From NCBI GenBank assembly GCA_003513765.1, contig DONT01000002.1, positions 101,091 through 165,090 on the forward strand: 64,000 bases of DNA, read 5' to 3'. The notes below the pieces were generated by a model. That model did no database searches. It saw nothing but the letters and a program-made list of their open reading frames with translations, and had not been told where the DNA came from. A program made the position numbers and the translations under genes. The stretch comes from Jeotgalicoccus sp. (GTDB lineage: Bacteria; Bacillota; Bacilli; Staphylococcales; Salinicoccaceae). This document shows positions 44,058-57,371 of this stretch, one piece after another; position 1 is the first letter of the stretch, and every line of letters starts with the position of its first letter.

Positions 44058-44382
44058 AAAAATATCTCCTAGTTTGCTTTGACCTGATTATATCACTCAG
44101 TGAATCACTCGGAGGGACTCCATTGTTATTTGTCGAAATTTATTCATAAAATTTCTAGACAAATATAGGTAATTTGGATGACATACTCTCATTAAATATT
44201 GTTTGTATCATAAATCTTAGTAAGTGAAAATGTAACTGCTAAACTAGACTCAACAGTTTTCTACAATTAAGACTCAACAGCTCTCTCCAAATAAGACACA
44301 ACAGTTTACAAACTAGAAATCACTTTTCGGTATACTGAGACAGAGTATATTGAAAGGGAGAGAACATGGAGTGGAAAAATGG

Positions 44383-45909
44383 ATGATTTATCAAGAGATA
44401 CACCGATTAAAAAATATGGGGTTTTCAAATAGTAAAATCGCAAAGAAATTAAATATATCAAGAAATAGAGTCATTGATTATTTGAATATGACACCCGATG
44501 CATTCGCTGACTTTATGGCATCCTTACAAAACAGAACGAAAAAACTGGATCCTTACCAAAGTGAAATATTAACGTGGTTAAAGGAACATCCAGATGTGAC
44601 CAGTGCGCAAATATACGATTGGCTGCAAGATAAATTTAATATTCAATACGTGGCTGAAAACACAGTCCGAAACTACGTCAATCACCTAAGGGAACACTAT
44701 CACATCCCGAAAGTGGCAGCGAATCGAATATACGGTGCGGTGGATGAGCTTCCACCCGGTCAGCAAATACAAGTCGATTTTGGAGAGATTATCGTGGACA
44801 CATCGTCAGGCGGGCGACAGAAATTGTATGTCGCCGGATTCATCTTATCGCATTCCCGATTTAAGTATGTGAAATGGTTAGACCGACCGTTTCGGACAAG
44901 TGATTTAATTAGAATACAGGAAAATGCATTCCATTATTTTGGCGGGATGACTGAGGAGATTGTCTATGATCAGGACCGTTTACTGGCGGTGAGTGAGAAT
45001 GCGGGCGATTTAATCCTGACCGAATCATTTACGAAATACCATCAATTTAGACGGTTTAAAGTCGAACTCTGTCGAAAAAGTGATCCGGAATCAAAGGGTA
45101 AAATCGAACAAGTGATTAAATATGTAAAAAACAATTTTGCCAAACATCGCGTCTTCGACAACTTGAATACATGGCAGCAGGACGCTTTGAAGTGGCTAAA
45201 AAGAACGGGGAATTATAAAGTCCATCACAATATAAAGAAAAGACCCTTTGAAGTGCACGCCCTCGAAAAGCAGCATCTTCAAACGGTCTCTGGGAAATAT
45301 CATTTTGACAACATTTCATCTATTAATATAACAAGAACGATTCATAAAGACAATGTCATTCGCTTTGAAGGCAACCGATATAGCGTGCCTCTCGGGACGT
45401 ATCAAAGTGGAAATGAAAACATTGCGTATGTCTCCGTCACAGATGGAAAATTGAGTATTTCGCTTCATCCAACGGGTGATTCGATTGCGATACATACAGT
45501 GTCTGATACTAAAGGTCAGGTGATTATAGACCCTAGTCATCGACATCGGTCTCAAACGAAAAGAGACCAACTGGTCGCACAAGTGTTTAAAGTTTTGGAT
45601 GATCCAGATCTGGCCGACGGATTGATTCAGACCTTGCATACACATTATCCGAGACATACGATTGATCAATTGAAAATTGTACTCCAGTCCGCCAAGCAGT
45701 ACCCACAACATATTAATGATGCGGTGAAAGAATTAAACCGGTTGAGATTGACCAGTGCGAATGATCTCAGAGATATTGCGATTTCATTGGACATTCAACA
45801 CGGTAAACACAGGGCCAAGCAGCCCGTCATTAATGAGAAGTACAAAGATATGACTGCCCCCGCGCGTCAAACGGATATCTATTTAAAAGTCCTTCAGGGC
45901 GGTCAATGA
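44383..45909 (+). CDS. istA: IS21-family transposase IstA
   Basis: N-terminal HTH (IHRLKNMGFSNSKIAKKLNISRN) and a DDE core. Start moved to the ATG at 44383 (GGAG 11 nt upstream). Confidence 0.9.
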   Translation: MIYQEIHRLKNMGFSNSKIAKKLNISRNRVIDYLNMTPDAFADFMASLQNRTKKLDPYQSEILTWLKEHPDVTSAQIYDWLQDKFNIQYVAENTVRNYVNHLREHYHIPKVAANRIYGAVDELPPGQQIQVDFGEIIVDTSSGGRQKLYVAGFILSHSRFKYVKWLDRPFRTSDLIRIQENAFHYFGGMTEEIVYDQDRLLAVSENAGDLILTESFTKYHQFRRFKVELCRKSDPESKGKIEQVIKYVKNNFAKHRVFDNLNTWQQDALKWLKRTGNYKVHHNIKKRPFEVHALEKQHLQTVSGKYHFDNISSINITRTIHKDNVIRFEGNRYSVPLGTYQSGNENIAYVSVTDGKLSISLHPTGDSIAIHTVSDTKGQVIIDPSHRHRSQTKRDQLVAQVFKVLDDPDLADGLIQTLHTHYPRHTIDQLKIVLQSAKQYPQHINDAVKELNRLRLTSANDLRDIAISLDIQHGKHRAKQPVINEKYKDMTAPARQTDIYLKVLQGGQ

Positions 45910-45910
45910 A

Positions 45911-46684
45911 ATGACGAACACTTATGATGACTTACAACAGAAATGTCGGACTCTCCGGTTGGCAGAAACCGCAAAAGAGCTACCGAATATGCTTCGGATG
46001 GGAGAGTCAAAGCATTGGACCTACTATGAATTGATGGATCAGATCCTCGGGTATGAACTGGACTGTCGGGAAGAAAAGAACCTGATTAAATTGATGAAAT
46101 GGGCAGAGTTTCCGCAACACTTAACATTAGAGCAATTTAAACTGTCTGAACAATCAGCGATTGGGGACAAGCAACTGAATGTATTAAAGGAGTTATCCTG
46201 GATTGAAGACCATTTTACATTAATTATGATGGGACCGCCTGGTGTGGGTAAGACCCATCTTTCCACCGGTCTCGGTATTCACGCTGTCAATCAAGGCTAC
46301 CAGGTGTCGTTTATACCGATGGATCATCTGGTATATATCCTTAAAACACGAGAGTATCTCAGTAAGTCAAAAACCAGATATAAACGTATGGAATCTTCAG
46401 ATTTAATTATTATCGATGACATCATGTATATGGCTTATGAACCGCAGGATGCCCAGCTGTTTTTTCAGTTTATCTATGATATGTATGACAAAACAGCGTT
46501 CATCTTAACATCGAATAAGGGGCCTAACGAATGGGGAAAATTTTTGGGAGACACAACACTGACCACGGCGATCTTAGATCGCCTCCTTCATCGAAGTGAA
46601 ATCATTACCTTTGATGAGAATCAAGACAGTATCAGAATGAAATACAGAAGAGCGTTATTTGAAGAAAAAAGTGTTGAGTCTTAA
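45911..46684 (+). CDS. istB: IS21-family helper ATPase IstB
   Basis: Walker A GPPGVGKTH and Walker B LIIIDD. It starts 1 nt after the istA stop. Confidence 0.9.
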   Translation: MTNTYDDLQQKCRTLRLAETAKELPNMLRMGESKHWTYYELMDQILGYELDCREEKNLIKLMKWAEFPQHLTLEQFKLSEQSAIGDKQLNVLKELSWIEDHFTLIMMGPPGVGKTHLSTGLGIHAVNQGYQVSFIPMDHLVYILKTREYLSKSKTRYKRMESSDLIIIDDIMYMAYEPQDAQLFFQFIYDMYDKTAFILTSNKGPNEWGKFLGDTTLTTAILDRLLHRSEIITFDENQDSIRMKYRRALFEEKSVES

Positions 46685-46744
46685 TTGGGATGAACTGTTG
46701 AACCTTATTTGGGGTAAAGTGTTGAGTTCTACTTGACGGTTACA

Positions 46745-47161
46745 TTTACGTCTTTTGAAATTAAAGAACTGGAACAAAATCCAAATGTATTGAGGGTATC
46801 TGATCGATCTATCACATATCGCCCGGAATTTAAAATACGCGCGGTAGAATCCCATGAACAAGGCTTTAATCCCACACAAATTTTCCTCGACCATGGATTT
46901 GATTTGTCTGTCGTCGGTAAAAAACAACCGGGAAGATGCTTGTCACGTTGGCGCCAAACTTATGCGCAATACGGAAGAAGTGGGTTGGAACGTGATCAGC
47001 GTGGGAATGGTGCCACAGGTCGTCCGACGAATAAAGCACTGAACAGTGATGAGAAATTAAAGAAAGCTGACGCAAGAATAAAGTATTTGGAAGCCGAAAA
47101 CGAATTTCTAAAAAAGCTCGAGATGAAAGAAAGGCAGGCGAAACAGAACCATCGTAGTTAA
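46745..47161 (+). pseudogene. IS3-family transposase OrfA lacking its native start
   Basis: FTSFEIKELEQNPNVLRVSDRSITYRPEFKIRAV... HTH-type OrfA. The ORF-track start (TTG 46733) lies inside the IS21 inverted repeat. Confidence 0.7.
47110..47116 (+). other. Programmed -1 ribosomal frameshift heptamer A_AAA_AAG of the IS3-family element
   Basis: In the orfA zero frame it reads CTA AAA AAG. orfB is open in the -1 frame downstream. Confidence 0.65.
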
Positions 47162-47190
47162 AACCATGGGAGACTTATGAATTAATTGAA

Positions 47191-56890: not shown

Positions 56891-56894
56891 CACA

Positions 56895-56990
56895 CCATTT
56901 TTTATAATCAGAGGAATCGATTGATCCTCTTAGTATATTTGCTGATTCCCATAAATGAGACTCTAATTGCGGTAATGTTAGTTTAGACAT
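56895..56990 (-). pseudogene. hsdM: First 32 codons of a type I restriction-modification methylase gene, cut by the IS3 element
   Basis: MSKLTLPQLESHLWESANILRGSIDSSDYKKW is the conserved HsdM N-terminus (LW..A..LRG......YK). The frame runs straight into the IS right end at 56894/56895. Confidence 0.65.
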
Positions 56991-57125
56991 GGTTTCACGC
57001 TCCAAATTTATTCAATCCAATTAATTTAACGTATTAAAACTGCTTATGTATTAAGTATTAATGCAATACTTTAAAGTAGGAGCGCTAGGCTCCTTCGTGT
57101 TGTTTGAATTTCTCTAAATTATCAT

Positions 57126-57254
57126 CTAATGATGTCGATGGTTATGGTTGGCAAGTGTTCTACCAGCCTTGCTCTTTGATGTTTTACTTGCTCCCTTTGT
57201 TGCTAGAACTCTTGCAGCTTTCCTTGTATAAGGAGTTGCTTTTTTACAAGCCAT
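57126..57254 (-). CDS. 42-aa basic orphan ORF MACKKATPYTRKAARVLATKGASKTSKSKAGRTLANHNHRHH
   Basis: Near-perfect SD AGGAGGTGG 6 nt upstream of the ATG at 57254; TAG stop at 57126. It lies 100 nt beyond the rlmH stop and is below the ORF-track cutoff. Confidence 0.45.
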   Translation of the reverse strand: MACKKATPYTRKAARVLATKGASKTSKSKAGRTLANHNHRHH

Positions 57255-57353
57255 AAACTACCACCTCCTGGCATCATGCCAATAAATTCTACGAAGTGGT
57301 ATCGCCTAGTTCCTACTCTATCACTTATTATACCAAATATAGTAAAAACCGCA

Positions 57354-57371
57354 TCAACGATGATACGCTTC
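57354..57371 (-). other. SCC-type attB/ISS-like core at the rlmH 3-prime end
   Basis: The minus strand reads GAAGCGTATCATCGTTGA (E A Y H R stop). Compare the S. aureus orfX core GAAGCATATCATAAATGA (from memory). Confidence 0.6.

Follow-up and report, generated by a model that had tools for sequence, protein, structure and literature searches.

A probable decayed SCC-like island, overbuilt by insertion sequences, at the rlmH end in Jeotgalicoccus

We describe an island of about 13 kb that lies directly beyond the 3' end of rlmH in a 64,000-nucleotide stretch of Jeotgalicoccus sp. DNA (contig DONT01000002.1, positions 101,091 to 165,090; hereafter the window). The island is most probably a decayed and immobilized relative of the staphylococcal cassette chromosome (SCC), which would have arrived by Ccr-type integration, then have grown by accretion driven by insertion sequence (IS) elements and finally have lost its distal end. 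The observations that carry this reading are a breakpoint in homology at the very dinucleotide where SCC elements are proposed to exchange strands, a foreign composition, boundaries that are sharp against close relatives, and the absence from the window of both ccr genes and a second attachment (att) site. Its intact cargo is a mobile tarI-tarJ-tarL module and a glycosyltransferase of the TarM kind.

The rlmH junction and the extent of the island

The island begins where the walR-walK-yycH-yycI-yycJ-rlmH backbone block ends. The last gene of this block, rlmH (57354-57833, minus strand), encodes an intact 23S rRNA methyltransferase of 159 aa (Pfam SPOUT_MTase 1.2e-54, residues 1-158). Its last five codons and stop form the 18-nt core GAAGCGTATCATCGTTGA (57354-57371, minus), which is the E-A-Y-H-[K/R]-stop core that a first-pass annotation of this DNA had recognized here, and the sequence continues past the stop as TGCGGTTTTT / TGCGGTTTTTAC. 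The att sequence of the window, GAAGCGTATCATCGTTGATGCGGTTTTT, makes up an rlmH-proximal site of the attR type (57345-57371, minus), which reads GA/AGCGTATCATCGTTGA followed by TGCGGTTTT. Its core variant, TATCATCG, has an Arg codon in place of Lys, with CGT where staphylococci carry AAA or AAG. Among the loci fetched for comparison, the Arg variant is confined to the Jeotgalicoccus/Salinicoccus/Aliicoccus/Nosocomiicoccus clade, and the same CGT variant serves as a downstream repeat in J. meleagridis (L008) and in L017. The distribution of core variants over about 80 rlmH loci does not follow phylogeny. The non-coding TGCGGTTTT past the stop occurs in 25 of these loci, from Staphylococcus through Nosocomiicoccus, and agrees with the S. 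aureus direct repeat/inverted repeat (DR/IR) sequence CATATCATAAATGATGCGGTTTTTT quoted in PMC13590631.

According to a recent study (bioRxiv 10.64898/2026.03.31.715619), SCC elements exchange strands at a GA that lies 6 bp before the TATCATAA core. The same GA forms the first bases of the 18-nt core in the window (57370-57371, minus), where it is the presumed strand-exchange point, and the breakpoint of the island is precise to it. When rlmH is compared with that of L001 (J. psychrophilus), L006 and L084, the divergence is 2.6-2.9% through the GA inclusive, and the first 16 nt past it then hold 6-9 differences (Fisher p = 1e-5 to 8e-10). These four rlmH alleles, which are about 97% identical, bear four different cores. 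From this pattern, the rlmH-side junction looks site-specific.

Comparison with the closest relatives fixes both boundaries. L084 aligns with window positions 63236-57370 at 95.3% and with 44234-42446 at 96.3%, the match stopping at 57370, in the GA of the core, and restarting at 44234; the island is therefore 44231-57369, or about 13 kb. In the interval between the two matches, L084 has a different segment of 3.5 kb with a P-type ATPase and a DedA-family protein, and neither L084 nor L086 (95-96% nucleotide identity) has tar genes or restriction-modification (RM) genes there. On the far side, the backbone flank (42611-44230, minus) consists of a 74-aa open reading frame (ORF; 43833-44057) and a luciferase-like monooxygenase (42611-43612). 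This flank is 96-99% identical in L084 and L086, the luciferase-like protein of L084 being identical to that of the window, and is also found at 85% identity in J. nanhaiensis (L004), about 9.7 kb past rlmH. DedA adjoins rlmH directly in L011 and L020 and follows the distal repeat in L009, which makes it a plausible ancestral neighbor of the gene.

The composition of the island is foreign. In 1-kb steps the backbone has a mean GC of 0.397 (sd 0.029), that is about 40% and not the approximately 47% first estimated by hand. GC falls to 0.25-0.35 across 48-56 kb and to 0.25-0.28 (z -4 to -5) at 48-50.5 kb, so the AT-rich block that had been suspected at 48.1-50 kb is real. The tetranucleotide distance from the backbone reaches a z of 12.6.

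The genes and the second site that would complete an SCC element are missing, as the first-pass annotation had also concluded. No second att core was found in the 64-kb window with exact, 1-3-mismatch or degenerate patterns, nor with a position weight matrix (PWM) built from 49 core variants, whose next-best score in the window, 13.6 bits, is at the level of shuffled sequence. As for a large serine recombinase, a tblastn search with a verified CcrB (a 542-aa ORF from a staphylococcal locus that scores 1131.7 bits on the NCBIfam CcrB model, cut-off 900) matched only a 192-aa resolvase in the window, and no recombinase domains occur in the largest backbone ORFs (377-778 aa). As a positive control, the same query detects ccrB and the neighboring ccrA downstream of rlmH in nine staphylococcal or mammaliicoccal loci. 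Searched against plasmids, the CcrB protein gave no Jeotgalicoccus or Salinicoccus match, a result that is uninformative about chromosomes, and the whole island (megablast) gave just IS3 fragments at 79-82% identity, with no plasmid or SCC-like record matching the island. Having a single att site and lacking ccr, the island is not excisable by Ccr.

IS elements, gene fragments and the far boundary

All the features that had been listed beyond the rlmH stop, from a 42-aa ORF through an IS21-family element, were found. Nearest to rlmH is the orphan 42-aa ORF, which is very basic (MACKKATPYTRKAARVLATKGASKTSKSKAGRTLANHNHRHH; 57126-57254, minus) and is preceded by a strong ribosome-binding site and a TGGTATAAT-like -10 box; neither a Pfam match nor a homologue among about 100 fetched loci was found for it. 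It is followed by an N-terminal stub of the type I RM methylase HsdM, MSKLTLPQLESHLWESANILRGSIDSSD (approximately 56990 to 56899, minus), of which about 30 codons and the upstream region remain and which is cut by the first of two IS3-family elements, IS3-A. The stub and its upstream region match the beginning of the complete hsdM of Salinicoccus sp. HZC-1 (L023) at 88% nucleotide identity. In that genome hsdMSR follows rlmH with the same core and TGCGGTTTTTA, and the region closes at a direct repeat 9.2 kb downstream. This likeness suggests that the rlmH-adjacent segment of the island is the remnant of an RM cassette.

IS3-A itself (approximately 55672-56911, plus; orfA 55746-56027, orfB 56060-56890; Pfam and NCBIfam transpos_IS3) shares 98.4% nucleotide identity across 1242 nt with a copy that J. 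nanhaiensis (L004) carries downstream of rlmH. Its ends were defined by comparison with that copy, and the flanking sequence holds no target duplication. The first bases of IS3-A provide the stop codon of an N-terminal stub of a type III RM Mod gene (55357-55674, plus; Pfam TypeIII_RM_meth 1.5e-13), a 44% identical relative of which lies just downstream of rlmH in S. schweitzeri. Next comes the small serine resolvase/invertase of 192 aa (54792-55370, plus; Pfam Resolvase and HTH_7), which is intact and has a relative with 76-83% amino acid identity 9.5 kb downstream of rlmH in S. auricularis (L051). Since both the resolvase and the Mod stub have rlmH-adjacent relatives, we regard them as fragments from the rlmH-side gene pool of the family. 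Beyond them lies the C-terminal remnant of an IS30-family transposase with an internal stop (approximately 54250-54560, minus), visible in six-frame translation as SEHSNGLLRRDGLPKNMDFNTVDQTFISSVAARRNHIPRKSLNYRTPLEVF and assigned to its family by eye.

At the other end of the island, the second IS3-family element, IS3-B (46745 to about 48100, plus; orfA 46733-47161, orfB 47191-48060; Pfam and NCBIfam), abuts an IS21-family element (44231-46744, plus; istA 44350-45909, istB 45911-46684; NCBIfam transpos_IS21, Pfam IstB_IS21). The orfB products of IS3-A and IS3-B are 24% identical, so these are unrelated elements, and no nucleotide self-match was found within the island. The first-pass annotation had counted four IS types; there are indeed four elements, but they belong to only three families (IS3 twice, IS21 and IS30). 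The IS21 element has multi-repeat terminal inverted repeats starting TGTAAC, and its flanks, AGTGAAAA and TTTACGTC, show no target-site duplication. A composite transposon was considered and rejected, as IS3-A and IS3-B are unrelated and no target duplication exists at the ends of IS21 or IS3-A.

The right terminus of the IS21 element overlaps the first codons of the IS3-B orfA, and IS3-B is therefore without its left end. The far boundary of the island is the outer IS21 end (44231), not an att site, and homology with L084 and L086 resumes at 44234. A deletion adjacent to IS21 probably removed the rest of IS3-B together with the distal att site and the ATPase-DedA neighbors. The arrangement resembles IS21 elements and their adjacent deletions in its istA and istB genes, its multi-repeat terminal inverted repeats beginning with TG, the lack of a target duplication and the truncated neighbor. 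It differs in that the deletion is here deduced from its outcome, and recombination between two IS21 copies would look alike.

Two window ORFs past the island (42006-42362 and 40954-41772) have homologues with 78-83% amino acid identity between yycJ and rlmH in L007, L009, L013 and L014; these homologues are upstream of rlmH in Lacicoccus and Salinicoccus, and downstream of it in the window. A rearrangement around rlmH thus appears to set the genus of the window apart from Lacicoccus and Salinicoccus.

The tarIJL module and its glycosyltransferase

The central part of the island holds three intact genes on the minus strand (50555-54009): tarI (53293-54009), tarJ (52272-53300) and tarL (50555-52243). 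TarL scores 1034.8 bits on its NCBIfam equivalog model (cut-off 1000), TarI scores 398.5 bits as a D-ribitol-5-phosphate cytidylyltransferase (cut-off 166), and TarJ is recognized by its ADH_N and ADH_zinc_N domains and by the conserved gene order. The predicted role of the three is the synthesis of CDP-ribitol and the polymerization of ribitol phosphate. TarL is 89% identical to that of Salinicoccus siamensis, 73-77% identical to those of the S. saprophyticus/equorum group and 66% identical to that of S. aureus, and its closest relatives outside the clade are staphylococcal.

This module is mobile, and comparison with its other contexts delimits it at 50373-54306 (minus). In the isolate genome of Salinicoccus siamensis, the same low-GC tarIJL is present at 86.6% nucleotide identity over 3563 nt (54121 to 50563), where it adjoins a capsule locus and is flanked by IS256- and ISL3-family elements; the 10 kb examined to each side of it contain no rlmH. 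Four further sequencing runs yielded contigs (L094-L097) in which window positions 54306 to 50373 recur at 100% or 99.98% identity before the sequences diverge at 50373; past this point L094 has a different IS21-family element and a 383-aa glycosyltransferase. An IS-flanked copy away from rlmH, together with this recurrence in other contexts, shows that the tar module moves with IS elements, independently of rlmH. Position 50373, the junction between the tarL terminator region and an acyltransferase stub, appears from these alignments to be a point of very recent reshuffling. A 22-nt inverted repeat, 91% complementary and with a 2-nt loop, is found at 50449-50494, about 60 nt past the tarL stop; it is likely the terminator that closes the module.

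Past the junction lies the acyltransferase_3 stub (50059-50328, minus), a C-terminal piece that covers only positions 269-324 of 326 of the Pfam Acyl_transf_3 profile. It is followed by an intact glycosyltransferase of 631 aa of the GT4 type, a TarM homologue (48124-50019, minus), whose gene is the most AT-rich of the island (25% GC). Against solved structures, the protein matches TarM(Se) (7qd7, E = 1.9e-49) and S. aureus TarM (4x7m, E = 1.2e-45). Residues 1-486 align to TarM 1-492, an extra C-terminal region of about 145 aa follows, and Pfam reports GT4 domains alone. The closest named relatives form a staphylococcal family of 628-632 aa with 53-71% identity. The earlier label of 'TarM-like' was thus right as to homology, but the protein is a member of a distinct 631-aa family. 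In S. aureus (L089-L092), a 628-aa homologue of 71% identity adjoins Tn552-like genes (blaZ-blaR1-blaI, two resolvases and a transposase) on contigs of about 22 kb. Judged by such neighborhoods, this accessory glycosyltransferase family appears to be plasmid- or transposon-associated in staphylococci.

Together, tarI, tarJ, tarL and the glycosyltransferase should, as predicted from their families, add a glycosylated ribitol-phosphate wall teichoic acid, given the linkage-unit genes on which TarL depends (tarO/A/B/F). In staphylococci, ribitol-phosphate teichoic acid governs phage attachment (PMC10672168, PMC11005348). A comparable set is the tarIJLM cluster of healthcare-associated S. epidermidis (PMC10672168), which is likewise an accessory, horizontally acquired combination of tarI, tarJ and tarL with a TarM-family glycosyltransferase, and TarM(Se) is the best solved-structure match of the island enzyme. 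In contrast to that system, however, the island glycosyltransferase belongs to its distinct family with a C-terminal extension and is distant from full-length TarM, a truncated acyltransferase stands between tarL and the glycosyltransferase gene, and both the host and the site are different.

J. nanhaiensis has a set of its own in the same place. Between rlmH and the shared backbone flank (L004, 10478-20300), it carries an antiporter-like gene, the IS3-A copy, an att-like repeat at 13927 and a 602-aa ORF, and then a TagF-like protein of 708 aa and a GT4 protein of 523 aa. The last two are 28-30% identical to the window genes and non-orthologous. The presence of a non-orthologous set of the teichoic acid type at the same locus fits a role for this locus in surface variation.

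Origin of the island and its place among rlmH cassettes

The history that we consider probable starts with a circular cassette, which would have recombined with rlmH at the GA through a large serine recombinase of the Ccr type. Integration would have swapped the last rlmH codons for those of the cassette (E-A-Y-H-R-stop, then TGCGGTTTTT). The original cassette probably bore a type I RM system like that of Salinicoccus sp. HZC-1. It would then have been broken and overbuilt, in an order that we can only propose, by IS elements and by plasmid- or transposon-like fragments: IS3-A, cutting both hsdM and the Mod gene, the small resolvase, the IS30 remnant, the IS-mobilized tarIJL of staphylococcal type, the TarM-family glycosyltransferase, IS3-B and IS21. 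The deletion next to IS21 would have taken the left end of IS3-B, the distal att site and the neighbors encoding the P-type ATPase and DedA. What resulted would be an immobile island, which could spread only together with its flanks through homologous recombination, or in pieces carried by its IS elements. Its only intact cargo would make CDP-ribitol and a ribitol-phosphate wall teichoic acid, glycosylate it and so alter the surface that phages see.

Several points weigh against this history. A Ccr-type recombinase was found neither in the window nor in any of 27 Jeotgalicoccus/Salinicoccus clade loci out to 10 kb from rlmH. The TATCATCG core, which departs from the conserved TATCATAA, is only a putative Ccr substrate. 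Among relatives, the 16 nt past the GA vary in both halves, and repeated events or gene conversion could be an alternative source of the pattern there. The deletion step is drawn only from the missing target duplication and the missing neighbor genes, and the whole island could have entered from another Jeotgalicoccus by homologous recombination.

The main alternative is that Ccr never acted in this lineage, that the core is simply the conserved end of rlmH, and that IS elements and homologous recombination alone built up and exchanged the island at a permissive hot spot. In its favor, besides the missing ccr genes, the far boundary is an IS end, the Salinicoccus siamensis tarIJL is IS-flanked and away from rlmH, the tar module is 100% identical in several contexts, and in S. 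aureus the glycosyltransferase has its closest homologue next to Tn552-like genes rather than in an SCC. We nevertheless consider this account unlikely. Homology with three relatives stops exactly past the GA and not at scattered points, and the non-coding TGCGGTTTT after the stop is common to several genera. Furthermore, additional cores near rlmH in the clade are strongly oriented. When we scanned 10 kb on either side of rlmH in the 27 clade loci with a PWM from all core variants (cut-off at least 15 bits), 16 extra cores lay downstream in direct orientation and only 1 in inverted orientation, while upstream there were 2 on the plus strand and 0 on the minus strand; staphylococcal control loci show the same core-orientation pattern. 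Finally, J. meleagridis has tandem att arrays. Thus, IS elements and homologous recombination alone account for the cargo and the far boundary, but not for the GA breakpoint, the oriented repeats or the tandem att sites. The first-pass annotation had put forward three possible origins: a pseudo-SCC without ccr, the decayed remnant of an SCC, and accretion by IS elements. Our results favor the second and third combined over a clean pseudo-SCC, as only one att site survives.

It is highly improbable that the locus is ancestral, with tar and RM genes native to Jeotgalicoccus and only the IS elements recent. The teichoic-acid-type genes that J. nanhaiensis has between rlmH and the same flank would favor this idea, but at 28-30% identity they are not orthologous to those of the window. 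An ancestral locus would also be expected to recur in close relatives and to have the composition of the backbone, as the first-pass annotation had reasoned. Instead, L084 and L086, the closest relatives, carry the ATPase and DedA genes there; the GC of the island is 25-35% against 39.7% for the backbone, and the computed GC and tetranucleotide (z to 12.6) profile breaks strongly. The nearest TarL relatives outside the clade, moreover, are staphylococcal. On gene content and composition break, we rejected this explanation.

We give equally little credence to the small resolvase (54792-55370) as the island's own integrase or excisionase at rlmH. The gene is intact and its S. auricularis relative also lies near rlmH, but the protein has a catalytic domain and a helix-turn-helix only and lacks both recombinase and zinc-ribbon domains. 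Scoring 42.8, 34.6 and 21.3 bits against the NCBIfam CcrB, CcrA and CcrC models (CcrB cut-off 900), it is not a Ccr, and such resolvases are part of the Tn552-like DNA near the related S. aureus glycosyltransferase. Serine enzymes of this size resolve or invert DNA between res or inversion sites, and none is known to integrate cassettes.

It is scarcely credible that the AT-rich block arose in assembly as a chimera joined through shared IS elements, and this explanation was rejected: the window does belong to a 439-kb metagenome-derived contig and the block is bounded by IS elements, but a Logan assembly from the same run agrees with the window, a second run (SRR6482964) gave a contig that matches positions 40555-62243 (21.7 kb) at 100% identity, by which the island is not an assembly chimera, and an isolate genome, that of Salinicoccus siamensis, has the same low-GC tarIJL module. 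As to the host, rlmH is 97% identical to that of Jeotgalicoccus psychrophilus, and the TarL protein is deposited under 'Jeotgalicoccus sp.'.

The decayed SCC-like island that we favor can be compared with the known elements at this site. Like SCC and SCCmec of Staphylococcus, Mammaliicoccus and Macrococcus, the island sits at the rlmH 3' end, its att or integration site sequence (ISS) core has TATCA followed by TGATGCGGTTTTT, the break in sequence starts at the GA, and it carries AT-rich foreign cargo along with the RM fragments and IS elements typical of SCC regions. Unlike them, it has no ccrAB or ccrC, no distal att and hence no att pair, a core TATCATCG with Arg where theirs is TATCATAA with Lys, a Jeotgalicoccus host, and neither mec nor any other resistance gene. 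A family-wide, gene-based survey likewise reported no mec genes in the Jeotgalicoccus and Salinicoccus genera (PMC12648241). With pseudo-SCC elements, 'no_ccr_elements' and staphylococcal cassette islands, it shares the position at rlmH, the lack of ccr and the accessory genes; relatives within the clade (L003, L005, L009, L017, L021 and L023) do have repeat-bounded, ccr-less cassettes of this kind. However, those elements are defined by an att pair, whereas the island keeps the rlmH-proximal att only and ends in IS21. Lacking both ccr and an att pair, it is neither an SCC nor a clean pseudo-SCC by the usual definitions. We found no report in the literature of SCC-like elements (searched as SCC, ccr, orfX and rlmH) in Jeotgalicoccus, Salinicoccus or Nosocomiicoccus. 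The island is thus an ordinary kind of element, unsurprising as such, in a genus where the kind had not been described.

Four of the six repeat-bounded cassettes are AT-rich relative to their hosts. GC is 33% in the cassette against 50% upstream in L017, 34% against 44% in L003, 28.5% against 43% in L005 and 32% against 39% in L021, and the difference is small in L009 and L023. None of the six inter-repeat intervals has a CcrB-like match. In J. meleagridis (L008, 10460-10700), five tandem att cores come right after rlmH, separated by two alternating spacers of 32 nt and 36-39 nt. The longer spacer (TGCGTGTTAAGACACAATACGCACATGTGG...) is also found past the rlmH core in J. psychrophilus (L001) and Aliicoccus (L021), and before the second core in L084. 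The L001 contig stops 41 nt past the rlmH match, and that of another Jeotgalicoccus metagenome-assembled genome (MAG; L002) stops at the last base of its truncated rlmH match; such ends would be expected if repeated or IS-rich DNA follows rlmH there too.

It is tempting to speculate, as a tentative proposal to which we give somewhat less confidence than to the history of the island itself, that the clade has an rlmH cassette system of its own, with the TATCATCG core (Arg end), tandem att sites, AT-rich cassettes without ccr, and a recombinase that would be unlinked or not a classical Ccr. Similar arrangements are seen further afield. An unclassified Bacilli MAG (L073) has direct copies of the core 1.2, 4.5 and 8.7 kb past rlmH, and two Paenibacillus loci (L067 and L078) have direct-orientation copies of the rlmH 3' core downstream of the gene; none of the three has a CcrB-like match. 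Docking at rlmH may therefore extend beyond the Staphylococcaceae, and the arrays in Paenibacillus and unclassified Bacilli hint that it could be older, and more widely spread, than SCC studies in their few genera would suggest.

SCC elements have been studied almost only in Staphylococcus, Mammaliicoccus and Macrococcus, owing to methicillin resistance. The locus described here and its relatives indicate that the end of rlmH also serves Jeotgalicoccus and Salinicoccus as a hot spot for cassettes, with the breakpoint at the same exchange dinucleotide, and tools tied to S. aureus genes or to fixed att patterns would probably miss such cassettes. This would widen the pool of organisms able to exchange cassettes, or fragments of them, with staphylococci, and it offers new att sequence variants as candidate Ccr substrates. 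Moreover, a ribitol-phosphate teichoic acid module of staphylococcal type moves between genera with IS elements. As the type of teichoic acid governs phage attachment, such movement would bear on the phage-borne exchange of DNA between these bacteria.

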